Shown: piece by piece, positions 6,422-53,238 of the stretch | Numbering within the stretch: position 1 is the stretch's first letter | Layout of the letters: the number at the start of each line of letters is the position of its first letter | IMG/VR virus record: IMGVR_UViG_3300008267_008434 | Reading direction: 5' to 3' (one strand) | From: a virus | Taxonomy: Duplodnaviria > Heunggongvirae > Uroviricota > Caudoviricetes | DNA: 64,000 nt | Program-made: the position numbers and the translations under genes | Notes under the pieces: model-generated | Databases searched by the model: none | Told to the model about the DNA's origin: nothing | Seen by the model: only the letters and a program-made list of their open reading frames with translations

Positions 6422-6652
6422 ATGACACATAGAGAATTTTATATTTGGTTAGAAGGTTATCTTGCTGGTAAACTTGAAAATAAACATATAGATATTACAC
6501 CTATTGTTGAAAAAATGGGTGAAGTTATTAGTGATGAACAAAAGTGGATTGATGACTTCAAAAGATATAGAGATATTAATCCATTACCAATAAAACCGAA
6601 TCCGTATAACCCACCGTATGAAATTTATTGCGGTACAAAAGACACAGAATGA
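6422..6652 (+). CDS. Hypothetical small protein
   Basis: ORF with ATG directly after the upstream stop (MTHREFYIWLEG...). Confidence 0.4.
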   Translation: MTHREFYIWLEGYLAGKLENKHIDITPIVEKMGEVISDEQKWIDDFKRYRDINPLPIKPNPYNPPYEIYCGTKDTE

Positions 6653-7428
6653 TAAAAAAAATAATACACTTTTCTGATTTACACATTCGTCTTTATAAAG
6701 ATCATGATTTGTATAAGTCAATAATGGAAGATGCGATTAACCAATGGAGAGAAATCAATCCTGATAGAATTGTATTCACTGGTGATTTGGTTCACTCTAA
6801 AAATCAAATGACTCCCGAACTTATTGAAATGGTTCGGTGGTTGCTTTTGGAATGTTCATTTATTGCACCAACAATCATTATACCTGGTAATCACGATTTC
6901 CTTGTAAACAATGTTGAAAGATTAGACGCACTTACACCAATCATTAATTCGTTAAATAATAAAAACATTTTCTATTATAGAGATAGAGGTGTGTATGAAG
7001 ATGAGAATATTAGTTGGTGTGTGTACTCGCAATATCAAGGGAATATTCCTCCTGATTTGAATGTTGCAACAGGAATAAAAGTGGGATTGTTTCACGGACC
7101 AATTCAAGGAATGAAAACCGATTTGGGATTTGACTTTGGAGAGGAGGCGTATGATGTTGAAAAGTTCAATGGACTTGATGTTGTATTATGTGGTGATATC
7201 CATAAAAGACAAGAATTTAACTTTAAAACGGGTAAAGGTTATATGATAGGTAGCCCAATACAACAAAATATTGGTGAAAGTATTGGTAGACATGGATATG
7301 GAGTTTATAATTTAGAAACAAAAGAATATAACTATACGGACTTATTCAACCCCAAGCCATTTTTAAAGTTTGAAATTAAATCATTTGAGGATATTGAAAA
7401 TGGAACCGAATTACTCAAAAATCTTTAA
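6628..7428 (+). CDS. sbcD: SbcD/Mre11-family nuclease (calcineurin-like metallophosphoesterase)
   Basis: All phosphoesterase motifs are present in order: 'FSDLHI', 'FTGDLVH', 'PGNHDF', 'GLFHGP', 'LCGDIHKRQ'. Confidence 0.8.
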   Translation: MRYKRHRMIKKIIHFSDLHIRLYKDHDLYKSIMEDAINQWREINPDRIVFTGDLVHSKNQMTPELIEMVRWLLLECSFIAPTIIIPGNHDFLVNNVERLDALTPIINSLNNKNIFYYRDRGVYEDENISWCVYSQYQGNIPPDLNVATGIKVGLFHGPIQGMKTDLGFDFGEEAYDVEKFNGLDVVLCGDIHKRQEFNFKTGKGYMIGSPIQQNIGESIGRHGYGVYNLETKEYNYTDLFNPKPFLKFEIKSFEDIENGTELLKNL

Positions 7429-11117: not shown

Positions 11118-11807
11118 ATGAGAGATAAGAAAATTTTGGTTAGGGATTTAGTTATTCATTTAAAAAAATTAAAGTTTGCAAAATATTTAGTTGAGTATAT
11201 TGATAACGAAATTCCTTTAACCATATTCCCTATTGCGAATAGGGAGGGGTTGACAATTAATGAATGGGTGAAAGATGTTGAAGATGATGTAAGACAACAC
11301 ACAGTTTTGACTACAACCAGATTATCATATGATGGTGTTAAATCATTTTTAGTTTACAAATTAAATACAATTCTCTCAACCTATAACGACGCAAATATTA
11401 AAGTACTTAAAATTACTGAGATTGTTAATACTGAAGAAATTGAGGGTAAATCTTTTGACGCTATATTTGAGTTTAACGGTGAAATTATTATAATTGAAAT
11501 TAAAGTAACCCAAAGCGATACCGCATTTACAGGTGCAACACATACAACATCAAAAGCGGATATTTTTTTATTAATATCATTATCAATTAATCGTGATAAA
11601 AAAGTTAAGGAAAGTGAAAAATATGTTGATGGTATTTTCGGTATGTTAATTAACTTGGATAAAGATTTTTGGAAAGGTGAGGCTAAAAATAATAGTAGTT
11701 TTACTACACTTAAATTTTTATCAAATATTGACTATAGTGAAAATATTTTTTGTGGTAGTCTTAAAAACAATAAAGTATACCAAAAACTAATTTTTGAAAA
11801 AATATGA
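11118..11807 (+). CDS. Hypothetical protein with candidate PD-(D/E)xK motif; possible nuclease partner of the downstream MTase
   Basis: 'SFDAIFEFNGEIIIIEIKV' gives D-x13-E-I-K spacing typical of PD-(D/E)xK. The stop overlaps the MTase start (ATGA). Confidence 0.3.
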   Translation: MRDKKILVRDLVIHLKKLKFAKYLVEYIDNEIPLTIFPIANREGLTINEWVKDVEDDVRQHTVLTTTRLSYDGVKSFLVYKLNTILSTYNDANIKVLKITEIVNTEEIEGKSFDAIFEFNGEIIIIEIKVTQSDTAFTGATHTTSKADIFLLISLSINRDKKVKESEKYVDGIFGMLINLDKDFWKGEAKNNSSFTTLKFLSNIDYSENIFCGSLKNNKVYQKLIFEKI

Positions 11808-12715
11808 ATGAAGTAATTTTAGGTAATGCGATTGAAGTATTACAAAGATATGAGGATAATACATTTGATTTAACTGTAACATCACCACCGTATGATAACT
11901 TAAGAACTTATAATGGAAAAATTAAGGATGAGGTTGTCTTTGAAGATGGATTTAGTTTCCCATTTGTGGAAATGGCTCGTGAGTTATATAGAGTAACCAA
12001 GAAGGGTGGTGTTGTTATTTGGGTGGTAAATGATCAAGTAAAAAATGGTGGAGAAACTGGTAGTTCATTCAGACAAGCACTTAAATTTAAGGAGATTGGA
12101 TTTACATTGTACGATACGATGATTTATCATAAGAATGGAGCCCCATTTCCTGAAACAGGTAGATACTCACAAGTATTTGAATATATGTTCGTCCTTTCAA
12201 AAGGGAAACCAAAAACGGTTAATCTATTAAAAGATAAACCAAATAGATGGGCGGGACATAGTAATTTTGGTGATCCATCAAAAAGAGAAAAAGACGGAAA
12301 CCTTAAAAAGGTTGACAAGTTTGTTGTATCTGAATTCGGTACAAGGTATAATGTATGGTATGTTAATAATGGTAAAGGGTTCTCATCCAAAGACGACATT
12401 GCATTCCAACATCCTGCAATATTTCCGGAATCATTGGCTGAGGATCATATTCTATCTTGGAGTAATGAAGGTGATATAGTATTAGATCCTATGTGTGGTA
12501 GTGGAACGACATTGAAGATGGCGAAACTTAATAACAGGAATTATTTGGGTATTGACATCAATGAAGAATATGTCGATTTATCAAATCTAAGAATACAAAA
12601 TATTGAACCATACACTAATGAAACACCTAATCCAAAGGTTAAATTCCTTTTATCTAAAGAAGATGCTTTATTGAAAAGAAAAAATAATAAAGAATCTAAA
12701 AATTTGTTGGATTAA
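11804..12715 (+). CDS. DNA methyltransferase, beta-class (N6-adenine or N4-cytosine)
   Basis: Motif IV 'TVTSPPYDN' precedes motif I 'LDPMCGSGTTLKMA', which is the beta-class order. Confidence 0.8.
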   Translation: MNEVILGNAIEVLQRYEDNTFDLTVTSPPYDNLRTYNGKIKDEVVFEDGFSFPFVEMARELYRVTKKGGVVIWVVNDQVKNGGETGSSFRQALKFKEIGFTLYDTMIYHKNGAPFPETGRYSQVFEYMFVLSKGKPKTVNLLKDKPNRWAGHSNFGDPSKREKDGNLKKVDKFVVSEFGTRYNVWYVNNGKGFSSKDDIAFQHPAIFPESLAEDHILSWSNEGDIVLDPMCGSGTTLKMAKLNNRNYLGIDINEEYVDLSNLRIQNIEPYTNETPNPKVKFLLSKEDALLKRKNNKESKNLLD

Positions 12716-13288: not shown

Positions 13289-14089
13289 ATGAAGGAAAAA
13301 GGAACAGGAATGCCCATTAATCAGGATGAAATCTCTCACTACCTAAAGGATATTAGGAAGATTAAAGTTATGACACCTGAAAGGGAAAAAGAATTATCTA
13401 AACTTATGATGTCGGATACTTTAACTGACAAACAACGAAAACAAGTTGAACAGGAGTTGTTAACAGGTAATTTACGATTTGTTATTACCGTTGCAAAACA
13501 ATATCAAAATCAAGGTTTGGATTTTCCTGATTTGGTTGCTGAGGGTAACTTAGGGTTATTGAAAGCAATTAAAAACTTTGATTGGAGTAAAAATTTGAGA
13601 TTTATTTCATATGCCGTTTGGTGGGTTAAACAATCTATTATTCAGTCTTTAAATGACAATGCGAGAACAATTAGACTTCCTGTAAATGTTGTTCAGGAAC
13701 TTCATAAAGCTAAAAAAGAAATTGAGAATAATGGAGGAAAACTATCGGATAAATTCTCATCTTTACCATCAATGATTGACTTAGATATGAATATCAATGA
13801 TGAGGGAGATACATTCCTTGATATGATACCAAATATGGATGCAGACGCTCCTGATGCGGCTTTTAATACTGCGGACATTCTTAAAGAAAAATTAATCAAT
13901 ACACTTAGTGTTTTAGATGAAAGAGAACGAGTAATTATTGAGGATTATTTTGGACTTAGTGGAACACCAAGAACTTTGGAAGATATTGGAGGTGATTTTG
14001 GTTTAACTAAAGAACGAGTAAGACAGATTAAAGAAAGAGCTTTGAGAAGGTTACGAAATGAGAGTTCTGAATTATTTGATTATATCTAA
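13289..14089 (+). CDS. RNA polymerase sigma factor, sigma-70 family (regions 2-4)
   Basis: Region 2: 'LRFVITVAKQYQNQGLDFPDLVAEGNLGLLKAIKNFD' and 'YAVWWVKQSI'. Region 4 HTH: 'LTKERVRQIKERALRRLR'. Confidence 0.85.
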   Translation: MKEKGTGMPINQDEISHYLKDIRKIKVMTPEREKELSKLMMSDTLTDKQRKQVEQELLTGNLRFVITVAKQYQNQGLDFPDLVAEGNLGLLKAIKNFDWSKNLRFISYAVWWVKQSIIQSLNDNARTIRLPVNVVQELHKAKKEIENNGGKLSDKFSSLPSMIDLDMNINDEGDTFLDMIPNMDADAPDAAFNTADILKEKLINTLSVLDERERVIIEDYFGLSGTPRTLEDIGGDFGLTKERVRQIKERALRRLRNESSELFDYI

Positions 14090-23045: not shown

Positions 23046-23975
23046 ATGAATATTCCGAATTATTACGACATATTAGGTGTTCCTGAAACTGCAACCCAAG
23101 ATGAGATAAAAAAAGTATATCGTAAACTGGCAAAAGAAAATCACCCTGATGCTGGTGGTGATGAGGAAAAGTTTAAGCAAATTGCTGAAGCATATGATAC
23201 TATTGGTGACGATAACAAACGACAAGAGTATGATATGAGAAGAAAGAACCCATTTGCAGGAATGGGAGGAGGTGACGATATATTCCAACAGATGTTTAAT
23301 CAGGCATTTGGTAATCGTAGACAAAAAAATGTGGTACATGATTTAGTTATTGATACTGAATTAAAAGTTACTGAATCATATTTGGGTGCGAATAAAGAAA
23401 TCACATATCGTAGGAAATTAAAATGTGATCCATGTAATGGTAGTGGGGGTGAGAAGAAAATTTGTCCCGAATGTAATGGACAAGGTTCTGTAGTGAGACA
23501 GATGGGGTCTGGTATGTTTATACAAATGGTACAAGTTGCTTGTAACACTTGTTCAGGACATGGACGAGTTATTACAAATCCTTGTCATATTTGTAATGGT
23601 AGTGGGACTAAAGATGAGATGAAAACTGTTGAAGTTAAATTACCTAATGGTATTGATGATGGACAATTCATCCGATTACAAGGTGTTGGGGATTTTAGAA
23701 ACGGTGTTTATGGTAACTTAGTTGTTAGAGTTAAATTGGTTTCTGATAATAATTTTGAAAAGTACGGACCTCACTTAATTTATAATGCTTATTTCACATT
23801 GGATGATTTGAAGAAGAGTGATTTTGAAATACCTCATCCTGACGGTACGGTAAGGTTAAGATTCCCAAAGACATTTGATACAACAAAACCCTTAAGAGTT
23901 AAATCAAAAGGGTTTAAAGGTGAAGTGATAGGTGACTTGTTGGTTAACCAGCATGTCCGATTTGAAAGGGATTAA
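23046..23975 (+). CDS. dnaJ: DnaJ-family co-chaperone (J domain plus four CxxCxGxG zinc-finger repeats plus C-terminal domain)
   Basis: 'YYDILGV...HPD' J domain. Repeats 'CDPCNGSGG', 'CPECNGQGS', 'CNTCSGHGR', 'CHICNGSGT'. Confidence 0.85.
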   Translation: MNIPNYYDILGVPETATQDEIKKVYRKLAKENHPDAGGDEEKFKQIAEAYDTIGDDNKRQEYDMRRKNPFAGMGGGDDIFQQMFNQAFGNRRQKNVVHDLVIDTELKVTESYLGANKEITYRRKLKCDPCNGSGGEKKICPECNGQGSVVRQMGSGMFIQMVQVACNTCSGHGRVITNPCHICNGSGTKDEMKTVEVKLPNGIDDGQFIRLQGVGDFRNGVYGNLVVRVKLVSDNNFEKYGPHLIYNAYFTLDDLKKSDFEIPHPDGTVRLRFPKTFDTTKPLRVKSKGFKGEVIGDLLVNQHVRFERD

Positions 23976-24910: not shown

Positions 24911-25750
24911 ATGTTAAGTTATATCGGAGGTAAGAGTAAAATTGGAAAGTGGATAGTCCCTTTCTATGATAATAATATGGAAACATATGTTGAAACATTC
25001 GGAGGGATGTTTTGGTGTTTCTTCAACATGGACTTAAAACAGTTCCCAAACCTAAAGAAAGTTGTTTATAACGACTTTAATCCACTTAATTACAATCTGT
25101 TTAAATGTATTCAGAACCCAACTGAATTATTGAATGCAATTAACGCAATTGATTGTCAGAAATTTGGTGTAGAAGTAACTCCACCAATTTATAAAGAACA
25201 GTTTATCAGGTTTCAGGCTGAAATTTTTAGTGAAGGTTTCAGTGTAGAACCTGGTAATTATGAAGTTGCTGCTAAATACGCTTATGTCCTTACACAGGTT
25301 TTTAGTGGTTCTAAACCTGAGACAAGTTCATTCATTGACTTGAAAGGTAAATACAAATCAAAGTATCTTACATTTAGAGATAAATTATCTAAACCTGATT
25401 GGGTAGAACATTTCTTGAAAATTACGGATGTTGAAAATATGGATTTTGAGGATGTCATTAAAAAGTATGATTCACCAACAACATATTTTTATGTTGATCC
25501 ACCATATTGGAAAACTGAAAATTACTATTCAAATCACGATTTTGACAGAGAAGATCATGAAAGACTTGCAAATATATTAAAAGGAATGGAAGGTAAATTT
25601 AGTTTGTCGTATTATGACTTCCCGTTGTTATCGGAATGGTTCCCTAAAGAACAATATAGTTGGGAGAAAAAAGAATTCGCTAAGGCGGCGGCAGCCAAAA
25701 AAGGTACCAAACAAAATATGGGTGAAGAATTACTTATACTGAATTATTAA
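24911..25750 (+). CDS. dam: DNA adenine methyltransferase (Dam / D12 class)
   Basis: N-terminal 'YIGGKSK', motif I 'VETFGGMF', catalytic 'VDPPYW'. Confidence 0.8.
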   Translation: MLSYIGGKSKIGKWIVPFYDNNMETYVETFGGMFWCFFNMDLKQFPNLKKVVYNDFNPLNYNLFKCIQNPTELLNAINAIDCQKFGVEVTPPIYKEQFIRFQAEIFSEGFSVEPGNYEVAAKYAYVLTQVFSGSKPETSSFIDLKGKYKSKYLTFRDKLSKPDWVEHFLKITDVENMDFEDVIKKYDSPTTYFYVDPPYWKTENYYSNHDFDREDHERLANILKGMEGKFSLSYYDFPLLSEWFPKEQYSWEKKEFAKAAAAKKGTKQNMGEELLILNY

Positions 25751-31859: not shown

Positions 31860-33368
31860 ATGAAAAAAGTAATTAGACTTACCGAATCAGATTTAATTAA
31901 AATAATTAAAACTAAACTCAACGAAGAAGAATCTGAATTTATTGAAATTCCCGCAAATGAATATGAACAGTTATTATCTGTAACTGGATATAATGGTGCG
32001 GCTCTTGAAAAGACAAGAAGGTTTAGAGGTAAGAAAATAAAAGTAAACGGTAGGTTAGATATATCAGGTAAACCAGTTACAAATCTTGGAACAATATATC
32101 TACAAGGATCATTAGAGGCAACTAGATCAAAGTTAGAAACTTTAAATGGTGTGACAATTACGGGGTCTAAATGGTACTATAATACACCATTGGAGTCTAA
32201 AGAAAAGATAAGGAAACGAAGAAAAGAATTGGATGATGCCCAAGAAAGAAGAGAAAATGGTGTGTGGGACTTAGATTATCCGAACATTGATGATGAGGGA
32301 TTAAAAGCAAATGCTGCGTTTCAGTACCTTGTTGAAAATGGTGAGATAGAAGAAATAACATCAGAAGAAAAAAGAGAATTAAAAAATTTAGAACAAAGAC
32401 AACTTAATATTTCTGATAGAATGGAAGCGGAAAATGATGAGGAACTTTTATCTGAATTGCAAAGTGAATACGATGAATTACAAGAAGACATTGATGATTT
32501 ATTAAGAAAGGAAAATAATGATGTTTATGGATTGATACCCAAAAGTTTTGGACATTATAATATGTTATCTTTTATGACAACATATGATGATTTTAATGAT
32601 GTGACAATTGCCGTTGGAACCGAATATGAAGCGGATGAATCAAAAAAAGAATGGGTTGAACAATTATTGGATGATGGAGGATATAGACACTTTAATCAAT
32701 ATACGGTTGAAAGACATATTGATGGTGATGAGGTTGCCGACTATTTTGAAGATGTTATTAGAGAATGGATATATGATGATCCTGATAATTATGACGTTGT
32801 AAAAGATTTAAGTAGAAGTCAAAAAGATGAACTTTGGGTTCTTAAAATGGAGAAATGGGTTTATGAAAATGAAGGAGTCAGGTTTCCAATAAAGTACCCA
32901 ACAAAAGAAGAAAATGGAACTGTATTTGATTTTTGGGATGAAGATGAAGAACACGAATTTCAATTAAAATATGAAGGAAATAAGTGGGTATTATATAAAG
33001 ACGGATCGATAGTTCAACCAGGTCAACTATATGATGATGAAGACACTGACGATCACCAAGATGATCGTGAAAGTAGAATTTCTGATATTGAATATGAAAT
33101 ACAAGAAATTGAAGAAAATCCTGATGGTGATTTGGATGAAGATTCGGTTGAAGAAAGGGTTGAAGATAAAAAATACGAAATTTCTAATGACCCTATAAGT
33201 TGGTTGAGAAATTACGACATGGATGTTGATAATTTTATTGATGAAAAGGCATTTATTGAAGATGTTGCTGGTGATGAGGATTATGGTATTTTGAATGGTT
33301 ACGACTCAACATATGATATTATTAATTTGGGTAACCAAAGTTATGTTGTAATGATAACCGATAAATAA
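31860..33368 (+). CDS. Hyper-acidic protein with conserved N-terminal leader 'MKKVIRLTESDLIKIIK'
   Basis: 502 aa, D/E-rich. The N-terminal 16 aa are nearly identical to those of the genes at 47314, 47615 and 47952. Confidence 0.5.
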   Translation: MKKVIRLTESDLIKIIKTKLNEEESEFIEIPANEYEQLLSVTGYNGAALEKTRRFRGKKIKVNGRLDISGKPVTNLGTIYLQGSLEATRSKLETLNGVTITGSKWYYNTPLESKEKIRKRRKELDDAQERRENGVWDLDYPNIDDEGLKANAAFQYLVENGEIEEITSEEKRELKNLEQRQLNISDRMEAENDEELLSELQSEYDELQEDIDDLLRKENNDVYGLIPKSFGHYNMLSFMTTYDDFNDVTIAVGTEYEADESKKEWVEQLLDDGGYRHFNQYTVERHIDGDEVADYFEDVIREWIYDDPDNYDVVKDLSRSQKDELWVLKMEKWVYENEGVRFPIKYPTKEENGTVFDFWDEDEEHEFQLKYEGNKWVLYKDGSIVQPGQLYDDEDTDDHQDDRESRISDIEYEIQEIEENPDGDLDEDSVEERVEDKKYEISNDPISWLRNYDMDVDNFIDEKAFIEDVAGDEDYGILNGYDSTYDIINLGNQSYVVMITDK

Positions 33369-33404
33369 TTTACAGATGACAAAACCTTTATTATACTTGA
33401 ATAA

Positions 33405-34196
33405 ATGGCAAGAAAAAAGAAAAATAAAGGAATTGAATTTATAATGGAAACAGATTGGTTATTTGAAAAACCAATTGATCAAGAACACAAAGAATATAAA
33501 TTATTAAGTTACTTCCAAAAAATGGGAGAGAAACTTGATAATATGGAACTATATCCTGGTTTCATAGAGTTGTCATTGCATTTGGCAAGTATTCAAACCC
33601 TAATTAAAGATAAAAAATTAATTTATACTGATAAGAAGTTTGATACGATTGATGATGAACTCCTTGTTAAGGATTTGAAAATCAAACAAATTCCTGACAT
33701 GACACAGGAAGAAACTCAAGAGTTTATTAGTATATTAAAATTTTCCGCACCAAGACTAATGGAGTACTTCAATGTTGCAAAGTCCGTGTGGTCAGTCGTG
33801 TTTGAAACAATTGAAGTTAAAATTAAAAAGAACAAAAAAAATCTATCGTTAAACAAAGGATACTTTTACTACAATGAGAATAAAACAAATAGTTTATATG
33901 TTTGGGAGTACAACATAACACCAGCATCAAGAGGTTCCATTGAGAAAAAAACACTTGTAAATTTAATTCATTCCGAACCAAAAGATAAGTTGACTATACC
34001 AAAAATAATTAATACATTTTCTCAATGGAGTTCTGATGAAGAAAAACCATCATTACCTGTGTTTGAAATGAAATGTAGTGATATATTCCCAATCAATGAA
34101 ACATTACTACCATTATTCAAAAGAAAACTGATTTCATATATTAATCAAGAAATGTATGGGAAAGAAAAAAAAGTGATACAAATTAAAGTTAAGTAA
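33405..34196 (+). CDS. Hypothetical protein
   Basis: 263-aa ORF. Confidence 0.45.
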   Translation: MARKKKNKGIEFIMETDWLFEKPIDQEHKEYKLLSYFQKMGEKLDNMELYPGFIELSLHLASIQTLIKDKKLIYTDKKFDTIDDELLVKDLKIKQIPDMTQEETQEFISILKFSAPRLMEYFNVAKSVWSVVFETIEVKIKKNKKNLSLNKGYFYYNENKTNSLYVWEYNITPASRGSIEKKTLVNLIHSEPKDKLTIPKIINTFSQWSSDEEKPSLPVFEMKCSDIFPINETLLPLFKRKLISYINQEMYGKEKKVIQIKVK

Positions 34197-34294
34197 TATG
34201 GATATAATAGAAATTTTTGAAAAGTTGGTTAAGGAAAATCCAAACGATAGTGATTTGGGTAAAAAAGTTAGAGAAATGTATCACAAATTAAAGA

Positions 34295-34486
34295 GTGAAA
34301 ATAATGGGATTCAACAAGAGGATACTCAGAAAAGATAATATTATTAATAATCTTGATAACCTATCAAGATATCTATCAGCCGATGCAATTATTATTAGTG
34401 ACGACTTTTCAAATGAAGTGTTCAAAATGTTCTGCGAAGGAAAAACTGAGGATGAAATCATAAAATATATAAATAAAAACAAATGA
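34295..34486 (+). CDS. Hypothetical small protein
   Basis: 63 aa with ATGA overlap into the GS gene. The antisense ORF 34288..34482 was judged spurious. Confidence 0.3.
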   Translation: MKIMGFNKRILRKDNIINNLDNLSRYLSADAIIISDDFSNEVFKMFCEGKTEDEIIKYINKNK

Positions 34487-35682
34487 AGATTAAACTTGAA
34501 TATCTGTGGTTAGACGGATATATGCCGGAACCAAATTTAAGAAGTAAGGTAAAAATTGTTAATTACGATGACATAAAAAATTCATTTATAACGGGTAGAT
34601 TTCCTGAATGGAACTTTGACGGATCATCAACAAACCAAGCAGAAACTGGGACTTCAGACTGTATTTTAAAACCTGTAAGACATTATTTGGATGATAAATT
34701 TGGTAGTGTGTATGTTCTTTGTGAGGTTATGAATTCAGACGGAACACCACATCAATCAAATACCAGATCATTACTTGGTAATGAACAAGAGGATTTGTGG
34801 TTTGGTTTTGAACAAGAATACTTTATCTATGATAGAAAAAATAAATGTATTTTAGGCCACGATGAAAACAACTTGGAACCACAAGGTAAATATTATTGTG
34901 GTGTTGGAGAATATGTTGCGGGTAGAGAATTTGTTGAAGAACATATGAATTTATGTTTAAGGTATGGGATTAACATAACAGGAATAAATGCCGAGGTTGC
35001 ACTTGGACAATGGGAGTATCAAGTATTCTCTCAAGGTAAATTGAAATCAGGAGATGATTTATGGATGTCTAGATACCTATTACATAAGTTGTCCGAAAAA
35101 TATAATTATGGGATTGAACTACACCCAAAACCAATCCAAAAAGGTGAATGGAATGGATCTGGACTTCACACAAACTTCTCAAATTATAAAATGAGGGAAG
35201 AAGGTGGTGAAAATCATTTTAAATCAATTTTCTCAAGTTTTGCCACAAGACACCAAGAACATATTGAAAATTATGGTTCATCAAATGAATTAAGATTGAC
35301 GGGTAAATTTGAAACCCAATCAATTAATAAGTTTAGTTGGGGTATTTCAGATAGAGGTGCATCAATTAGAGTTCCACAATCAACCGCAAAAGAATGGAAG
35401 GGATATGTTGAAGATAGACGACCATCATCTAATGCTGATCCATATAAAATCATTTATCAAATATGTGAATCATTAAGAAACGCTGAAGAGATTGACGACA
35501 TCAAACATAAAATGAATTATAAACTTGATATGGACAACCTTAAGATGGATTATAAAACAATCCCAACCGATGAACTATTAAAAGAATACTTCAATGATGA
35601 AGAATTTGAATTGGATGGTAAAACAATGGATGGAAGTAATATCCCTACAAAAGAAATTAAATTTGATTTAAATGGAAAATAA
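34483..35682 (+). CDS. glnA: Glutamine synthetase, type II (eukaryotic-like GSII)
   Basis: 'PEWNFDGSST', 'YYCGVGEYVAGREFVEEH', 'GINAEVALGQWEYQV', 'NGSGLHTNFS' and 'ASIRVPQS...GYVEDRRPSSNADPY' are near-identical to GSII signature regions. Length 399 aa. Confidence 0.85.
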   Translation: MKIKLEYLWLDGYMPEPNLRSKVKIVNYDDIKNSFITGRFPEWNFDGSSTNQAETGTSDCILKPVRHYLDDKFGSVYVLCEVMNSDGTPHQSNTRSLLGNEQEDLWFGFEQEYFIYDRKNKCILGHDENNLEPQGKYYCGVGEYVAGREFVEEHMNLCLRYGINITGINAEVALGQWEYQVFSQGKLKSGDDLWMSRYLLHKLSEKYNYGIELHPKPIQKGEWNGSGLHTNFSNYKMREEGGENHFKSIFSSFATRHQEHIENYGSSNELRLTGKFETQSINKFSWGISDRGASIRVPQSTAKEWKGYVEDRRPSSNADPYKIIYQICESLRNAEEIDDIKHKMNYKLDMDNLKMDYKTIPTDELLKEYFNDEEFELDGKTMDGSNIPTKEIKFDLNGK

Positions 35683-36511
35683 TATATTTAACAAATTACC
35701 CGGAATGATGTTTGGTAAGGGTGAGGGTAACATTAGTTGGTACCCAGAAAGGATTCATACCCTACAAGATTTGGTATACCAAATTAAACCAAGAAATATT
35801 ATTGAAATAGGATTCAATGAAGGACATTCAATGGTTTTAATATGTGAGACATTATTGAAAATAATTAATGAAGATCCTGATTTTAATAGGAAACCAATAA
35901 TTGTTTTTGTATTTGATGACTGTAAATATGAGAGTACTGTTAACAATCACTCAATACTTGCCAAGCATTACAGGAAGTGGAACATACATTTGAGTTTATT
36001 TCCTGGTAACTCCCTTGAGGTTGTTCCAAGAGTTTTAGACACATCAAAAACAAAATTTGATTTTATTGAGATTGATGGGTGCCACTTTGAGGAATGCGTT
36101 AGAGGTGATATTAATAATGTGATTAATTTTATTAATGATGATGGTATTGTATATTTGGATGATTATAAGTCCTCAAAAGATCCTACTGAAGGTGTTAATA
36201 ATGTAATTGAATCATTTGACTGGCAAGGATTTAATACCTATCATATTGATGGAGTATTTTGGGCTCACAAAAAGAAAAAAGAAATGGAAGAAAAAAAGGA
36301 ACAAGTAAATCACCCTAACCACTATGGGGGAGAGTCAAACCCATATGAAGCAATCAAGGTGATTGATGCTTGGGACTTAGGATTCTCCCTTGGTAATACT
36401 GTGAAGTATATCTCAAGAGCGGGTAAGAAAGAGTTAGATAAAGAATTACAGGATCTTAAAAAAGCATTGTGGTATTTGCAACACCACATTGAAACATTGG
36501 AGAAAAAATGA
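35672..36511 (+). CDS. Fusion: class I SAM-dependent methyltransferase domain plus C-terminal DUF3310
   Basis: 'IIEIGFNEGHS' (motif I-like) and 'FIEIDGCHFEE...GIVYLDDY' (Methyltransf_24-like). C-terminal 'VNHPNHYGG...IDAWDLGFSLGNTVKYISRAGKK...DLKKALWYLQ' is the DUF3310 signature. Confidence 0.55.
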   Translation: MENNIFNKLPGMMFGKGEGNISWYPERIHTLQDLVYQIKPRNIIEIGFNEGHSMVLICETLLKIINEDPDFNRKPIIVFVFDDCKYESTVNNHSILAKHYRKWNIHLSLFPGNSLEVVPRVLDTSKTKFDFIEIDGCHFEECVRGDINNVINFINDDGIVYLDDYKSSKDPTEGVNNVIESFDWQGFNTYHIDGVFWAHKKKKEMEEKKEQVNHPNHYGGESNPYEAIKVIDAWDLGFSLGNTVKYISRAGKKELDKELQDLKKALWYLQHHIETLEKK

Positions 36512-37110
36512 TAGAAACAGGAAAAATAATAACAGGAGATTGTATTGAGGTGATGAAAACATTACCTGAAGGGTCTGTGGATTTAATCGTCACATCACCA
36601 CCCTACGGAGTCGGGATTGCGTATGATACCCACGATGATGATGTGGAGTTTGAGGAGTATTTGGTATTTGCCAAAAATTGGTTAACTGAAGCATATAATG
36701 TTTTGAAAGATGATGGACGAATCGCGTTGAATATTCCATATGAAATCAATAGACAAAAGAAAGGGGGAAGAATTTTCTTTGTTTCTGAAATGTATCAATT
36801 AATGAAACAAATTGGGTTTGGTTTCTTCGGTATCGTGGATTTAGAAGAAGATTCACCTCATCGTAGTAAAACAACTGCTTGGGGATCTTGGATGAGTCCG
36901 TCAAGTCCGTATATTTATAATCCAAAGGAGTGTGTAATACTTGCATACAAAAAACACCACATTAAAAAGGTTAAGGGAGAACCTCAGTGGAAAGGGACAC
37001 CTACTGAAATTGAACAGGAGGATGGAACCATAAAAAAGAAAGTTGTATATGAAGAACAAGATAAGAAGGAGTTTATGGAACTTGTTTTTCACCAAACTAT
37101 ACCGAGATAG
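36508..37110 (+). pseudogene. Truncated beta-class DNA methyltransferase (N-terminal half only)
   Basis: 'LIVTSPPYGV' catalytic motif is present, but the ORF stops after 200 aa. No downstream 'DPFxGSGTT' SAM motif I in any frame before the terminator. Confidence 0.5.
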
Positions 37111-37172
37111 CCAATACGAGAGTAAATTACTTTAAAACCTTACAGGAAATAAAAGAAGAACAACTCTAATAT

Positions 37173-37203
37173 AAAACCCACCTTAAAAGTGGGTTTTTTT
37201 ATT
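37173..37203 (+). terminator. Rho-independent terminator
   Basis: aaaacccac-loop-gtgggtttt followed by a T-run. Confidence 0.6.
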
Positions 37204-37205
37204 TT

Positions 37206-37532
37206 ATGGATATTTATTCATATATGAAAATAATTATAACGGAAAATAAAAGGGACAGACTGGCGTTAAATTGGTTGAATAATAAATTCGGTAATCTAAC
37301 TAAGGTTGTTAACTATGATAGAACATTTTATGTTAATAAGGATAAAAAACCGTTATTTTACTATTATCAAGATGATAAAAATAAGTTTGTTTTTATTGAT
37401 TACACAAGAATTTGGATATTTTTTGAATCCATTTTTGATATGGAATATGAACAAATACAAGATATTCTAAAAATATGGTTGGAAGAAACCTATAATTTGA
37501 GTGGATATTTACCTATTGATTACGGACACTAA
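37206..37532 (+). CDS. Hypothetical protein
   Basis: 108-aa ORF. Confidence 0.4.
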   Translation: MDIYSYMKIIITENKRDRLALNWLNNKFGNLTKVVNYDRTFYVNKDKKPLFYYYQDDKNKFVFIDYTRIWIFFESIFDMEYEQIQDILKIWLEETYNLSGYLPIDYGH

Positions 37533-37552
37533 CCTATAATATAAAATAAAGT

Positions 37553-38428
37553 ATGAAAATATTTCTTACCGAAAAACAATTAAAATATTTAAAGTCAAAT
37601 CTTATTTCAGAGTCAGATGAGGTAAATCAATATGGGTTTACACAGGACGAAATGAAACGAATTGAAGAATTTGTTAGAAAAAATGTTAAACAACAATATG
37701 AATGGTTAAAAAAAGAAGTTGAGGAGGGTGAGGAACATGCGGAAATTTTGGAAAAAATAAAAAGTCATATTAAAAATAATCCTGATATACCTGAAAAATA
37801 TTTTGATTATATGATTAAAGAATATGAGGGTAAAGTAAAACAATACGAAAGAAATAAAAAGAACCTTGAAAATTTTGATTTTGAAGAGTATGTTAAAGAT
37901 GGTATTGATAGAGATATACACGGAGGAGCATATTCAATGTCTTGGAATATCAGAAGCGAAAAATGGGAGAAAGAACAATTAAATAGAAAGTTAACAAAAG
38001 AAGACATAACTGATATTTTAGTTACCGCTCTTGAGGGTGGATCCAATTATTGGTATTTAATTGATTTACCTGAAAATATAAAATCATATGGGCAATCAAA
38101 ATCTGAAGCGGTTGGTGAATATGTCTTACGAGGTGGGTCAATTGATTTCTACGATAAGGAAGAATATTATGATGTTAGGAGAGCATTAAAAGATGGTGAT
38201 TACAATATTGGTGATAGTGATGATATGGTTGATGAAAAGAGTTATCAGGAAGACATTGAAAATACTAAACTTGGACATATTGATATGAACAGAATATTAG
38301 AGGCAATAACAAAAATAAAAAGTGAATATCCTGAAGTTTGGAAAAATATATTATTGGAAAATGCGGATGCTGGAGATGCCGATGTATTCTTACAACTATG
38401 TGTAATGGGTGAAGTTGTTTATGGGTAA
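37553..38428 (+). CDS. Hypothetical protein with leader-like N-terminus 'MKIFLTEKQLKYL'
   Basis: 291 aa. N-terminal hydrophobic-LTE-x-QL motif. Confidence 0.45.
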   Translation: MKIFLTEKQLKYLKSNLISESDEVNQYGFTQDEMKRIEEFVRKNVKQQYEWLKKEVEEGEEHAEILEKIKSHIKNNPDIPEKYFDYMIKEYEGKVKQYERNKKNLENFDFEEYVKDGIDRDIHGGAYSMSWNIRSEKWEKEQLNRKLTKEDITDILVTALEGGSNYWYLIDLPENIKSYGQSKSEAVGEYVLRGGSIDFYDKEEYYDVRRALKDGDYNIGDSDDMVDEKSYQEDIENTKLGHIDMNRILEAITKIKSEYPEVWKNILLENADAGDADVFLQLCVMGEVVYG

Positions 38429-38446: not shown

Positions 38447-38478
38447 AAAACCCCACTCAAAAGGTGGGGATTTTTTAT
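38447..38478. terminator. Bidirectional terminator between convergent genes
   Basis: ccccac-tcaaaag-gtgggg followed by atttttt. Confidence 0.6.
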
Positions 38479-39435: not shown

Positions 39436-40848
39436 ATGGTTATGAGAAAAAATTTAATATTAGAATCAGGATTAAGGGATATTAACAAATTAGCTAAAAG
39501 ATACCCTAAAGCTAAAATATATTTTCACCAAGATTTAGATGGTGTTACTACCGCACTTGCAATGAAACACTATTTGGAGAATAATGGTATTAAAGTTGTT
39601 GATGCCGAAATAATCCAATACGGGGATAAAGAATTTTCAGTTAAGAAATTAGATGCTGAAGGTGATACAATGCCTGTACTGGTAGATTTTGCCCACGGAA
39701 AACCAATGTTTGTTATTCATACCGATCACCACGATACTCAAGCCGGAGTTGAACAAGGAACATCAACAAGTTTTAGATCATCAAGATCGAATGTTGAAAC
39801 AATATCTCAAACAATATCACCTAAAGATATTTTCTCACCTGAAGACATTACATTAATATCAACTGTGGATTCTGCAGATTATGCAAAACACGATATCGCA
39901 CCTGAACAAGTGATGAACTACCTATTCAAATTAGATAAGGATAAAACATTACAAAGAAATAAAATGTTAATGGGGTTGGTTGTTAATAAACTATTATTAG
40001 CATATAAAAATAAACCAGGTTTTCTTGAAGAAATTGTTTTAACCGCAAATCCATCATTAATGAGTATCCTGAATAATATTAGAGGACAAATGATGAGTAA
40101 AGGATACGCTGAGGTTGGAGATCTTGAAAAGAATAAGGAAATGTATGTCCAAACGATGAAGTCACATCCTAATGTTAAAATTGATGACAACATTATTGTA
40201 CAATATGGTGGTGGATCAATGATGAAACCAGGTTCTTATGATAGATACACCCCATTTAGAAATAATCCTGATGCCGACTTCTTAGTTATTGCTTGGCCGT
40301 TAGGATTGGTTCAAGCATCCTGTAACCCATTCAAAAAAGAAAGAGCACTTAAAGGAGTTAACTTAGGTGAGATTAAAGATGAAGTATTAGGAAAATGGGA
40401 ATCACAATTAAAAGATAGGGATATTCCATTATCAACAATTAAGTGGATATCAGAATCAGGAAAAGGATTTACACCTGAATCTGTTGGGTTCACATATAAA
40501 GATTTTAGAGCGTTATACGGAGATAAATTCAAATCAAAAGACGGTAAAGATTTTATGAGAGATATTGATACGGCAATGTCAAAATCATTTACCGATTTAA
40601 CTGATGAAGAGATGAGTTTACTTGATAGTGTTACCGTAACTGCTTGGGACATTATCCAATCAAATAGTGGAGGACATAAATGTATAACTAACATTTCGGG
40701 ATTAAATTATATGGGTAGAAGTAAAAGACCACCTCAAGGGAAATACAAATATAGTTCTGAAAATGAGGACGCTGCGTATGTGAAATTTACTAAAATGATT
40801 CAGAATGAATTTGTTAGATTATTGAAAGAGAAAGTTCAAGAAGGTTAA
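39436..40848 (+). CDS. DHH/DHHA1-family phosphoesterase (NrnA/RecJ-like)
   Basis: Motif I 'HQDLDGVTTA', motif II 'LVDFAHG', motif III 'HTDHHD'. DHHA1 'GGH' in 'SNSGGHKC'. Confidence 0.6.
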   Translation: MVMRKNLILESGLRDINKLAKRYPKAKIYFHQDLDGVTTALAMKHYLENNGIKVVDAEIIQYGDKEFSVKKLDAEGDTMPVLVDFAHGKPMFVIHTDHHDTQAGVEQGTSTSFRSSRSNVETISQTISPKDIFSPEDITLISTVDSADYAKHDIAPEQVMNYLFKLDKDKTLQRNKMLMGLVVNKLLLAYKNKPGFLEEIVLTANPSLMSILNNIRGQMMSKGYAEVGDLEKNKEMYVQTMKSHPNVKIDDNIIVQYGGGSMMKPGSYDRYTPFRNNPDADFLVIAWPLGLVQASCNPFKKERALKGVNLGEIKDEVLGKWESQLKDRDIPLSTIKWISESGKGFTPESVGFTYKDFRALYGDKFKSKDGKDFMRDIDTAMSKSFTDLTDEEMSLLDSVTVTAWDIIQSNSGGHKCITNISGLNYMGRSKRPPQGKYKYSSENEDAAYVKFTKMIQNEFVRLLKEKVQEG

Positions 40849-45576: not shown

Positions 45577-46827
45577 ATGAAGAAAAATTTAATCATTACT
45601 GAAAATCAACTTGAGATTATTGTAAATAATCTCTTACTGAATGAAGCCGTTGGAGTTCCTGAAGGAATCATTGAATCGGCTGAAGAACTATATGAAATCA
45701 TATTAAACCTATTAAAAGGTATGGATGATTACGACACAACACAAACATTTACTGAAGATAATTTAGATTTAACAATATCTGATTATAAAATACACGAATT
45801 AGAGTTAGCAGTTCAAGTTCACGAAATGGATGAATATGATGGACCATTCACTATGATATCAGCCGGTGTTGCAAATCAATTTAATTTTGATAGAAAACTA
45901 CTAATGAAGGTTCATAAACAGGATAACACAATTGAGTTACAATTACATTTTGCATCAAATGGGGATGATTGGGATTCCCAAGACCCTTATAATTACTTTA
46001 CTAATGATAGAGTTCAATTAATATCTGTAATTGCTCACGAAATTAAACATAAGTTTGATAAACAAAAAAAGACAACTGACTTGATAGGGAAAGATGCTGA
46101 TTATCAAGCATATGCAAGTCAAGGGTTAAACTTCGGAATTCCGGTTATTAGTGAATTTATGAGATATAGTTATTTCATTCAATATGTTGAAAATCTTGTT
46201 AGACCAACTGAAATGGCAACAAGAATGAAATTAACTGGAGTAACAAGAGAAAAGTTTAGAGAATTTTTTGAAAATGATAGTGTTGTTAAAGAACTAAAAG
46301 AAATTAGAGATTTTAGTTTTGAACATTTTATGGAAGAATTACATAATCAAATGGATCGTGTGGATGGTTTATTAGAACACGCAGATGTGGATTATGAAAA
46401 TATGACTGAAGAGGAAAAAATAAAGGTAGTTATGGATATAGTTTATATTAATCTTATTAGTGCTAAAAGAGATATTTTTGATAAAATGACGGATAGTGTT
46501 GATAGTGAAATGGCTAATTTTATGAGAATGTTAGGTATGGGTGTTAAGCGTGAGAACGATGAAGGATTGGAAAAAGTTAGACATAAATATTTAAATCAAC
46601 TTGCCAAATATCGTAATAGAGAAAGTCAGTTCTTTGTTGATGAATGTGAAAGATTTAACTATGTTGCAACAAAATTAATTAAACGACTTGTAAAAATATA
46701 TTCACTTATTCCTGACGAAAAAGAACAAACCAACGAATCAATTCTTAATTGGGAGTTACACCAACAAATAATGGAGAAAAAATACGGAAAAAGAAAAATA
46801 GAAAAAGAGTTTAAATTTAAACGGTAA
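45577..46827 (+). CDS. Hypothetical protein with leader-like N-terminus 'MKKNLIITENQLEIIV'
   Basis: 416-aa ORF. Confidence 0.45.
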   Translation: MKKNLIITENQLEIIVNNLLLNEAVGVPEGIIESAEELYEIILNLLKGMDDYDTTQTFTEDNLDLTISDYKIHELELAVQVHEMDEYDGPFTMISAGVANQFNFDRKLLMKVHKQDNTIELQLHFASNGDDWDSQDPYNYFTNDRVQLISVIAHEIKHKFDKQKKTTDLIGKDADYQAYASQGLNFGIPVISEFMRYSYFIQYVENLVRPTEMATRMKLTGVTREKFREFFENDSVVKELKEIRDFSFEHFMEELHNQMDRVDGLLEHADVDYENMTEEEKIKVVMDIVYINLISAKRDIFDKMTDSVDSEMANFMRMLGMGVKRENDEGLEKVRHKYLNQLAKYRNRESQFFVDECERFNYVATKLIKRLVKIYSLIPDEKEQTNESILNWELHQQIMEKKYGKRKIEKEFKFKR

Positions 46828-47313: not shown

Positions 47314-47610
47314 ATGAAAAAAGTAATAAGACTAACCGAATCAGACTTGACAAGAATAATCCAAAGGGTTATTACCGAATCCAAAAAGAAACAAAGTAAA
47401 TCTGAAATATTAAAGATGTCAAAAGAAGAATTGGAAGATGTTTATGGTGAATTGGAAATAAAGGGTGAATACCATGGAAAAAAAGGAACATTCCACCATT
47501 TTAAAAAAGCTATGTTTGATGTTGTTTGTAGTTTTAGAACTGACGATACAACACCATCAGGTTTAAAAAGAAATACAAAAGGAATTAAAGTTAAAAATTT
47601 AGATATTTAA
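47314..47610 (+). CDS. Small basic protein, leader-motif paralog 1 (MKKVIRLTESDLTRIIQRVI)
   Basis: 98 aa, Lys-rich. Shares the N-terminal ~20 aa (and ~45 nt) with the next two genes and with the gene at 31860. Confidence 0.55.
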   Translation: MKKVIRLTESDLTRIIQRVITESKKKQSKSEILKMSKEELEDVYGELEIKGEYHGKKGTFHHFKKAMFDVVCSFRTDDTTPSGLKRNTKGIKVKNLDI

Positions 47611-47614
47611 TGTT

Positions 47615-47947
47615 ATGAAAAAAGTAATAAGATTAACCGAATCAGATTTAACAAGGATTGTTAAACGAGTGATCAATGAAAATAAGAAAAAACCATCAAA
47701 TGAAAAAATTGAGGATGTGTTAAAAAAACTTATGGATGATTACATTGGTGAGGATGAATGGAAAGGTGGTTATAAAGAATCGTCAGATAAACCATATGAC
47801 AGATTTATGGTTAGTTTTAAACAATCGGGGGATGACACCGAAGAGATTGCTGAAGAAATCATTGAGAAACTAAATAATAAATTTGAAAGTAACTTATTTA
47901 AACTTGGTAACGCAAGTAAAAACTCATTTTGGTTTTATATAAAATAA
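47615..47947 (+). CDS. Small protein, leader-motif paralog 2 (MKKVIRLTESDLTRIVKRVI)
   Basis: 110 aa. Tandem paralog. Confidence 0.55.
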   Translation: MKKVIRLTESDLTRIVKRVINENKKKPSNEKIEDVLKKLMDDYIGEDEWKGGYKESSDKPYDRFMVSFKQSGDDTEEIAEEIIEKLNNKFESNLFKLGNASKNSFWFYIK

Positions 47948-47951
47948 TGAT

Positions 47952-48299
47952 ATGAAAAAAATAATTAAACTAACCGAATCAGACTTGACAAGAATTGTTA
48001 ATCGTGTGATTAAAGAAAATGAATCTAAATCTGATTTATTAGACTTAACCGTTTTTCAGTTGAGAAAAAAATTGGGTTTACCTAGTGGGTGTAAGATTGA
48101 GATTAAAAAGGGTGATGTTTCAGGAAAGAAACTTAAATATACTAAATATGTTAAATACATTATTACTCAATTACCGTCACCTGTTGACGGTAATCGTGAA
48201 AAAATAATGGATAAAATAGAATCATTAGAATCTAAAGATATTAATTCTCATGCATCACCCAATTTTGGAAAGGGAGTGACTTGGATTATTAAATACTAA
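47952..48299 (+). CDS. Small basic protein, leader-motif paralog 3 (MKKIIKLTESDLTRIVNRVI)
   Basis: 115 aa. Tandem paralog. Confidence 0.55.
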   Translation: MKKIIKLTESDLTRIVNRVIKENESKSDLLDLTVFQLRKKLGLPSGCKIEIKKGDVSGKKLKYTKYVKYIITQLPSPVDGNREKIMDKIESLESKDINSHASPNFGKGVTWIIKY

Positions 48300-52107: not shown

Positions 52108-53238
52108 ATGGAAAATCAAAATAGCGTAGCATATGTTGGAAAAATAGGTTCAGTAGTTGAAATACCAAATGCTGACAACATAGAACTTGTACTTGTTGGT
52201 GGATGGCAGGCGATAACCAAAAAAGGTGAATACCAAGAAGGAGATAAAGTTGTTGTTGCAACCACTGATGCGGTAATACCACAAGCATTGTCTGACTTGA
52301 TGGAAGTGACTAACTACCTTCGTAAAGGACAACGAGTTAGAACCGTAAAACTTCGTGGATTTTATTCCGAATGTTTGTTAATACCATTCAAGTACTTGGC
52401 ACCAAAATCATTGGTGAACAATGTTAATGAAGGTGATGATATGATGGAAATACTTGGAATAACCAAATACGAACCACCGGTTAAAATGGTTACTTTGGGT
52501 GGAGGTAAGAAAGTTAGATACCACCAAAATCCAAACTTCCATATCTATCACAAATTCCCAAACATGAAGAATGTTCCTGATATGTTCACCGAAGAAGATG
52601 AGGTTGTTATCACCCGTAAAATACACGGAACTAATGCCAGATTTGGAATAGTTAGAAAGAAAAAACTTTCTTTGTGGGATAGAGTGAAAAAGTTCTTCGG
52701 TAATGAGTGGGTTGAGTTTGAATATGTGTATGGTTCTCATAATGTGGAGAAAGGATCTGATTCTCAAGGATTCTACGATACTGATGTGTGGAGAGAAGTT
52801 GCCAACAAATATGACATACGAAAAAAACTTTGGGATCATGTTAAGGATACATATTACCCTGAATCTTTGGAACAAGGACTTACTATCTATGGGGAAATCT
52901 ATGGTAAAGGAATCCAAAAAAACTATGAATATGGTTTGGAGGAAATAAAGTTTGTTGGTTTTGATGTTGAAGTTGATGGTGTTTATCAACCACACCTTGA
53001 AGAAACCGTTCATTTTGATTGTTTGGAACTCCCACAAGTTGAAGTATTATATGAAGGAACTTGGAGTAAAGAAGAACAAGATAAATATGTCTTCGGTAAT
53101 TTTATAAAAGGAACCAAAGTTCCTCACGAAGGTATCGTTGTTAAATCTGTGACTGGTGATCGTCATAAAGTTGCAAAGGTTATCAATCCTGATTATTTAA
53201 TATATGGGGAGAAAAATAATGTTGGTGACTCCCATTGA
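52108..53238 (+). CDS. ATP-dependent RNA ligase (Rnl2-like nucleotidyltransferase)
   Basis: Motif I 'RKIHGTN' (KxHGT), motif IV 'HEGIVVKS', motif V 'KVAKVIN'. Confidence 0.6.
   Translation: MENQNSVAYVGKIGSVVEIPNADNIELVLVGGWQAITKKGEYQEGDKVVVATTDAVIPQALSDLMEVTNYLRKGQRVRTVKLRGFYSECLLIPFKYLAPKSLVNNVNEGDDMMEILGITKYEPPVKMVTLGGGKKVRYHQNPNFHIYHKFPNMKNVPDMFTEEDEVVITRKIHGTNARFGIVRKKKLSLWDRVKKFFGNEWVEFEYVYGSHNVEKGSDSQGFYDTDVWREVANKYDIRKKLWDHVKDTYYPESLEQGLTIYGEIYGKGIQKNYEYGLEEIKFVGFDVEVDGVYQPHLEETVHFDCLELPQVEVLYEGTWSKEEQDKYVFGNFIKGTKVPHEGIVVKSVTGDRHKVAKVINPDYLIYGEKNNVGDSH

Follow-up and report, generated by a model that had tools for sequence, protein, structure and literature searches.

The 64,000-nucleotide viral DNA of IMG/VR record IMGVR_UViG_3300008267_008434 (Caudoviricetes), called the window below, carries three tightly packed + strand open reading frames (ORFs) ending at a hairpin terminator. 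They encode a type II glutamine synthetase (GSII, or GS for short; 399 aa, 34483-35682), a protein in which an S-adenosylmethionine (SAM)-dependent methyltransferase domain, Methyltransf_24, is fused to DUF3310 (279 aa, 35672-36511), and a truncated DNA methyltransferase (200 aa, 36508-37110). With a probability of about 80%, these are independent accessory genes in a large AT-rich uncultured phage, one of them broken, and not a pathway. The parts are all of known kinds: a viral GSII-type glnA, a COMT/TylF-like methyltransferase, DUF3310 and an orphan DNA methyltransferase that has become a pseudogene. The domain assignments rest on database matches well above chance, and both the coordinates and the Pfam domains agree with the first-pass annotation of this DNA, which had noticed the three consecutive overlapping genes. 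The GS and fusion genes overlap by 11 nt (ATGGAAAATAA), and the fusion and DNA methyltransferase genes by 4 nt (ATGA).

That annotation had gone on to suggest a gene set for nucleobase or nucleotide hypermodification, in which a ligase of the GS fold and the fusion would work jointly with the fragment as a target-recognition subunit. The suggestion has its attractions: the genes are adjacent and overlapping, their order recurs in relatives, and DUF3310 is a domain of a nucleotide kinase. GS-like amide ligases are, moreover, predicted in phage base-modification clusters. It is nevertheless extremely unlikely in the light of the broken gene and the distribution of the three genes described below.

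We infer the following physiological roles instead. The GSII, which appears catalytically intact, would convert glutamate and ammonium to glutamine at the expense of ATP within infected cells, and nucleotide and protein synthesis would draw amide nitrogen from this glutamine, as expected of a classical auxiliary metabolic gene. The domain identities, the deletion and the separate distribution of the genes, by contrast, are directly shown by the analysis. The DUF3310 module has gained, in one subclade, an N-terminal SAM-dependent domain with the fold of cation-dependent O-methyltransferases, attached through a flexible linker. The third gene once encoded an orphan beta-class DNA methyltransferase, of which a 187-bp deletion left a dead ORF of 200 codons.

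For comparison, 95 related loci were gathered by exact-protein look-ups and by a scan of IMG/VR with an alignment of the fusion. In each of them tblastn was used to score GS, DUF3310, the Methyltransf_24 domain, the two halves of the DNA methyltransferase and flanking markers. Once redundant loci had been removed, 51 remained in which both sides could be assessed, and these are the basis of all presence/absence counts. No near-identical phage was found by megablast among 50,697 deposited phage records.

A DNA methyltransferase gene broken by a deletion

The product of the third gene matches the N6_N4_Mtase profile at positions 1-111 of 221 only. It shares motif IV (TSPPYG, residues 29-34) and the first half of the profile with the orphan beta-class N6-adenine/N4-cytosine DNA methyltransferases of phages, but differs from them in having neither motif I nor about 62 of their residues. 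No FxGxG motif is found in it, and the earlier description of an enzyme without its SAM-binding half is thus borne out. Phages use orphan beta-class DNA methyltransferases for self-protection against restriction. The fragment is 93-95% identical in amino-acid sequence to full-length orthologs of 282-288 aa, complete enzymes that carry a JGI (Joint Genome Institute) annotation as adenine-specific, and related phages have such an intact gene at this very locus. Relatives number thousands in a large protein collection; among the best 120, identity over the first ~195 residues is 85-96%, and all but two (118 of 120) are 268-291 aa long. They run on as ...EFMELVF-GQWNYFADTKSLTKATFSMDIPTKAIKILSYKNDVILDPFAGSGT..., with the SAM-binding motif I.

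The site of the lesion can be placed to the nucleotide. Every related contig ceases to match the window at the DNA level exactly at position 37089, the last of the 582 nt (194 codons, 36508-37089) that remain intact at the 5′ end of the gene, including motif IV (SPPY). The closest long relatives, the IMG/VR contigs L097 and L098, are 81% identical in DNA sequence over 33000-37089. The L097 alignment resumes at 37086-37246 with 86% identity, covering the last ~75 nt of the gene and the terminator, and in a global alignment with L097 the window shows a single gap of 187 bp, whose junction lies at 37089/37090. As 187 cannot be divided by three, the deletion throws the gene out of frame and translation stops after six codons (HQTIPR, then the stop; 37090-37110). 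The original last 25 codons and stop codon remain behind out of frame at 37092-37169 (PNYTEIANTRVNYFKTLQEIKEEQL followed by the stop). The deleted stretch amounts to ~62 residues, GQWNYFADTKS...DPFAGSGTT...RRWLGIELS, with motif I among them. Beta-class enzymes need the motif I part of the fold for SAM binding, and with this part deleted the predicted 200-aa product should be inactive.

The gene was followed by its own terminator before it was broken. A hairpin at 37173-37197, with a 9-bp stem and a 7-nt loop, leads into a T run that ends at 37205, and an identical hairpin sequence stands in the same place 3′ of the intact methyltransferase gene in L097, by which we assign it to that gene. It was found by a pattern scan and folding. 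The first-pass annotation had called this a strong terminator; hairpin and T run are indeed present and make a plausible intrinsic terminator, but a folding energy of -11.1 kcal/mol (z = -1.7) is real without being exceptionally strong.

From which gene does the fragment derive? The same annotation had offered, as an alternative, a decaying duplicate of the full methyltransferase at 11804-12715. In substance a decayed gene is what we find, but the source is another one: the alignment of the 36508-37110 product with that of 11804-12715, proposed at the time as a check, gives 26% identity as against the 93-95% of the orthologs. A duplicate is therefore ruled out, and the fragment is a deleted ortholog.

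When did the deletion occur? The 194 retained codons have no mismatch at columns that are at least 95% conserved among the 120 relatives, which themselves average 0.8 such mismatches. With no decay to be seen, the deletion is either very recent or an artefact of assembly. An error of assembly or sequencing, or else a minority variant of a phage that really has the intact gene, is an unlikely explanation. It would fit the lack of decay in the retained part, and neither the exact 200-aa product was found in the gene and protein index nor the 24-nt deletion junction in metagenome contigs or IMG/VR. A near-identical contig, L015, breaks off shortly within the methyltransferase gene, perhaps because strains differ there. 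Base-calling errors, however, do not typically leave a clean 187-bp gap between colinear flanks, and loss of this gene is plausible in view of its fate elsewhere: it is wholly missing in 8 of the 51 loci, and in L005 (ENA GROS21-1 scaffold_9641) it is interrupted. At 3385-3400 of that scaffold the codon of a conserved glutamate reads TAG in place of GAG and divides the ortholog into pieces of 187 aa and 71 aa, which is either an independent inactivation or, less likely, a case of stop-codon reassignment.

It is very improbable that the fragment has been kept for a new function, whether as a decoy that binds DNA, as a regulator or as the partner subunit of another methyltransferase. Translational coupling of its ORF to the upstream gene persists and its sequence shows no decay, but a recent event would account for the lack of decay just as well. 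The six residues appended by the frameshift are random, this allele has been seen once, and in every other locus with enough downstream sequence the N-terminal half is accompanied by the C-terminal half. A truncated-looking enzyme should thus be checked against its orthologs before a new role is assigned to it.

The window has two other DNA methyltransferases, both intact: an N6_N4 enzyme at 11804-12715 and a D12 (Dam-like) enzyme at 24911-25750. Repeated loss of the orphan methyltransferase by deletion, nonsense mutation and absence, with two others left intact, illustrates the turnover of anti-restriction genes in natural phage populations.

Gain and loss of the three genes across related loci

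If the three genes formed one pathway, would they travel together? Six of the eight possible combinations of GS, the Methyltransf_24 domain and the DNA methyltransferase occur among the 51 loci. GS and the DNA methyltransferase without the Methyltransf_24 domain account for 23 loci, the DNA methyltransferase without the other two for 8, the Methyltransf_24 domain and the DNA methyltransferase without GS for another 8, the Methyltransf_24 domain without the other two for 7, all three together for 4, and GS without the other two for 1. DUF3310 alone is constant, partly by construction as the loci were found with the fusion, and it is 62-97% identical throughout the scored loci. The presence of six combinations is robust to this bias of the sample. 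Individual loci tell the same: L008 and L009 have the fusion alone, L010-L012 have the fusion and the DNA methyltransferase without GS, and L005 has GS and a stand-alone DUF3310 with an NAD-dependent sugar-nucleotide epimerase/dehydratase in the slot of the methyltransferase domain. The GS genes in phage records of 634-735 kb have neither DUF3310 nor a methyltransferase within 8 kb.

The spacing of the genes varies too. Between DUF3310 and the DNA methyltransferase there are inserts from 0 to ~1.9 kb and, in one locus, of 4.6 kb. The flanks are conserved, with a 263-aa gene upstream and SLT, DUF192 and NUDIX genes downstream. The region thus has the pattern of a variable accessory stretch between conserved flanks and not that of an operon for one pathway, and the co-inheritance that would mark a hypermodification cluster is not seen across the 51 loci.

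These observations speak against the joint pathway proposed by the first-pass annotation. Besides the six presence/absence combinations, its supposed target-recognition subunit arose by a frameshifting loss of 187 bp from a gene that relatives have in full length, and it has neither motif I nor part of the SAM-binding fold. The intact gene found at this locus in related phages is, moreover, one of the observations that the annotation had itself named as refuting its reading. Its supposed ligase keeps every GSII motif and is thus a canonical GSII, which in the 634-735 kb phages stands without the other genes. The Pfam scan of roughly 40 window ORFs and the Pfam-annotated neighbourhoods of the relatives revealed no base-modification gene, whether of the hydroxymethylase type or another. 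The main value of the analysis is in this sense negative: phage genes that lie side by side and are translationally coupled do not for that reason form a pathway.

In a number of loci (L112, L118, L134, L173, L175 and others), identity is 87-97% for the DUF3310 and DNA methyltransferase proteins but no higher than 34-45% for the 263-aa neighbour upstream. This suggests either strong constraint on a DUF3310-methyltransferase module or its recent horizontal exchange among phages.

The glutamine synthetase and the fusion protein

The first of the three genes has the Pfam domains Gln-synt_N and Gln-synt_C and aligns over its full length with GSII structures, with a beta-grasp N-domain and a catalytic C-domain. 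Residues 3-338 align to yeast GSII (3fky) with E = 3.4e-89, and matches in the PDB to the yeast, plant, insect and mammalian enzymes range from 3e-89 to ~1e-70. An alignment with bacterial GSII shows that the motifs FDGSST, FGFEQEY, NAEVxxGQWEYQ, WNGSGLHTNFS, RLTGxxET, DRGASIRVP and EDRRP are all kept; GSII structures assign to these motifs the binding of metal, ATP, glutamate and ammonium. Positions 1-327 of 333 of the NCBIfam GlnII profile are covered, with a score of 333 bits against an equivalog cut-off of 500. The protein is thus a divergent member, whose GlnII function is a prediction. In its full-length structure match and in every signature motif it resembles GlnII/GSII and viral glnA products, and it differs from them in its sub-cut-off score, in an identity to bacterial GSII of at most 57% (GTDB) and in a C-terminal tail specific to its clade.

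The 43 distinct phage GS sequences fall into one clade in a quick neighbour-joining tree, which fits a single acquisition followed by losses. The closest bacterial GSII by tblastn among GTDB species representatives are from Bacteroidota (56-57% identity); unlike these best matches, the sister of the phage clade in the tree is a pair of Gammaproteobacteria/SAR86 genome bins. The tail (in the window about residues 336-399, 35488-35679) is 42-99 aa long with a (D/E)ELL(K/S/N)EY motif in the phage-clade sequences examined, and was recognised by alignment in the GS genes of L001, L005, L013 and L096-L172. Neither bacterial GSII nor the GS of the 634-735 kb phages has it. In the literature searched neither this tail nor any equivalent description was met with, and we regard it as a modest variant. 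One remote possibility is that the DELLKEY tail is a new regulatory or docking element by which the enzyme would escape host control of nitrogen assimilation.

Among the 50,697 deposited phage records, GSII homologs (44-55% identity) are found only in metagenomic phages of 634-735 kb; two further records match GS only weakly (25-26%). A DHH-like 470-aa protein encoded elsewhere in the window (39436-40848) likewise has all its relatives among these records in 634-735 kb phages. The phages concerned are LR745206, LR756501, LR756502 and LR756503, and a common gene pool or host range may lie behind this. Published work describes glnA as an auxiliary metabolic gene of large and jumbo phages (PMC13172472, PMC13037316). 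The window GS is most simply, and probably, a nitrogen auxiliary metabolic gene of this sort, to judge from its sequence. A monophyletic and widespread phage GSII clade with its own tail would offer a tractable test of whether viral glnA changes host nitrogen flow.

In the second gene both domains score above their Pfam cut-offs. Methyltransf_24 (PF13578) is matched at residues 44-165 with 39.1 bits (cut-off 26.3). An AlphaFold model of the fusion, built with 29 family members, has a mean predicted local distance difference test (pLDDT) score of 86.6, with an O-methyltransferase-like domain at about residues 20-200, a linker at 205-223 and DUF3310 at 212-270 by Pfam. The linker is disordered (pLDDT below 50) and of variable length across the family. 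The top PDB matches of the model in Foldseek are MeT1, TrmR, SafC, bacterial and rat COMT, NovP, SpnH and CalS11 (E 1e-9 to 1e-7, 10-22% identity, TM-score 0.5-0.66), with a probability of 1.0 for MeT1, TrmR, SafC and COMT. In BFVD the top matches are giant-virus and caudovirus proteins named macrocin O-methyltransferase and methyltransferase-glycosyltransferase fusions. A glycine-rich motif I (EIGFNxGHS) is conserved in the family. Across 29 of its members G47, G51, D82, D135 and D164 do not vary, and H138 and D163 are almost constant, D163 being at least 90% conserved. From sequence and secondary structure, D135, D163 and D164 look equivalent to the DxxK and DN motifs. These residues would fit SAM and metal binding, and the N-terminal domain is predicted to adopt the fold of cation-dependent class I O-methyltransferases. 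With COMT/CCoAOMT, the TylF/NovP/MycF type, MeT1 and TrmR it shares a Rossmann-type SAM fold and motif I, its conserved acidic residues D82, D135, D163 and D164 may correspond to theirs, and it differs from them in being 10-23% identical to any solved or viral model and in being fused to DUF3310.

The fusion is kept down to 48% identity in ~50 protein clusters, and is confined to one subclade; elsewhere DUF3310 stands alone as a protein of ~70-90 aa. A search of word-indexed proteins with the methyltransferase domain only gave no relative beyond the fusion family, a sequence search of the PDB with the whole fusion gave no match, and tblastn of the deposited phage records matched the DUF3310 part only and never the methyltransferase domain. 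The O-methyltransferase::DUF3310 architecture is without description in the literature searched, a modest variant like the GS tail.

The DUF3310 module itself (36305-36481; PF11753, E = 3e-13) scores 50 bits against a cut-off of 24 and covers all 60 profile positions (1-60). T7 gp1.7 carries PF11753 at residues 122-184, and the window module is 42% identical to gp1.7 residues 117-183. The full gp1.7 architecture is not present, as the alignment covers DUF3310 only and the N-terminus of the fusion is an unrelated methyltransferase domain; the likeness to the gp1.7 nucleotide kinase and to SaV of a lactococcal phage is that of a common PF11753 domain. DUF3310 has been linked to the kinase activity of gp1.7, to the AbiV-sensitivity protein SaV and to cytotoxic mycobacteriophage proteins (PMC9339283, PMC8306868). 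A model of DUF3310 only gave no informative structural relative. In the metagenomic proteins P0189, P0228 and P0223 its fusion partners are a primase-like Zn-ribbon/Toprim region, the C-terminal part of ThyX and a helix-turn-helix (HTH) domain, and these fusions hint at a role of DUF3310 in nucleotide or DNA metabolism. It is also seen at either end of ~390-aa metagenomic proteins that have no other Pfam domain. Highly conserved and uncharacterised, DUF3310 is worth biochemical study.

What, then, might the fusion methylate? A sugar or small-molecule hydroxyl is our best guess, because of the glycosyltransferase fusions among its viral matches and the epimerase that replaces the domain in L005. 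By analogy with TrmR, the fusion alone might instead act on nucleotides or nucleic acid, for example by O-methylating a hydroxylated pyrimidine nucleotide, with DUF3310 supplying nucleotide binding, kinase activity or docking at the replisome, and with GS and the DNA methyltransferase as unrelated neighbours. DUF3310 being the C-terminal domain of a T7 nucleotide kinase (PMC9339283) speaks for this, as do its primase-like, ThyX and HTH fusions and the second place of TrmR among the PDB fold matches, and yet we would call the idea unlikely. At 15-19% identity, however, TrmR is indistinguishable from sugar and catechol O-methyltransferases, and several of the viral matches are macrocin-type O-methyltransferases or glycosyltransferase fusions. 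L005, moreover, has a sugar-nucleotide enzyme in the same slot, DUF3310 stands alone in most loci, so that the methyltransferase domain is not needed, and no partner hydroxylase was seen. In a more specific form, a gp1.7-type module would present a hydroxylated (deoxy)nucleoside monophosphate to the TrmR-like domain, or would dock the latter at the machinery of replication or nucleotide-precursor synthesis. Such a nucleotide-directed O-methyltransferase is quite improbable; if true, it would imply a methoxy-type modified base, not previously described in phage.

Having set out these possibilities, we return to the view that the three genes are independent and one of them broken. Several points weigh against it. 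Similarity to the fusion guided the choice of loci, which biases the sample, and the counts ignore phylogeny. The order GS-DUF3310-DNA methyltransferase is the commonest (23 of 51 loci), and in 13 loci the gap between DUF3310 and the DNA methyltransferase is 0-9 nt, often with overlap; a functional link between these two may exist. The deletion, its junction having no second witness in metagenome contigs or IMG/VR, may be an assembly artefact. Fold matches at 10-23% identity include enzymes for sugars, catechols, polysaccharides and tRNA, and do not tell a sugar from a catechol or a nucleoside as substrate; TrmR, ranked second, is a tRNA 5-hydroxyuridine O-methyltransferase. Finally, the GS falls below the GlnII equivalog cut-off and bears an unexplained C-terminal tail.

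Neighbouring genes and other features of the window

Directly after the terminator lies a 108-aa ORF (37206-37532, + strand), an insertion relative to L097, where 8700-8732 corresponds to 37206-37545 of the window, and to L098; in both of these the terminator leads directly into a 291-aa gene. It is no part of the cluster's function. Copies of this gene occur elsewhere in related genomes, after DUF932 and after NUDIX, and a partial match lies inside a 159-aa gene downstream of the methyltransferase in relatives; it behaves like a mobile or multi-copy family of small genes. No Pfam family was found for the 108-aa and 291-aa downstream ORFs or for the 263-aa upstream ORF. Further on, the convergent 291-aa gene (+) and SLT-domain gene (-) are separated by a GC-rich hairpin (38451-38469), which has a T run on either strand and looks like a bidirectional terminator.

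The window as a whole is ~30% GC, with coding nearly all on the + strand. No tRNA genes were found in it, nor any enrichment of promoter-like sites. Other genes in it encode a sigma-70 family factor (13289-14089), DnaJ (23046-23975), an SbcCD-like pair (6628-7428 and 8690-11065) and an RNA ligase (52108-53238). A common leader, MKK(V/I)I(R/K)LTESDL(T/I)(R/K)I(I/V) or a looser MKxxxxLTExxL, opens at least six + strand ORFs whose lengths differ widely: 31860-33368, 37553-38428, 45577-46827, 47314-47610, 47615-47947 and 47952-48299, and the leader is also found at 37224 inside the 108-aa ORF. It resembles the capsid-targeting sequences of T4, which are cleaved by the prohead protease after (L/I)xE, and the ORFs that share it could encode packaged or ejected proteins.

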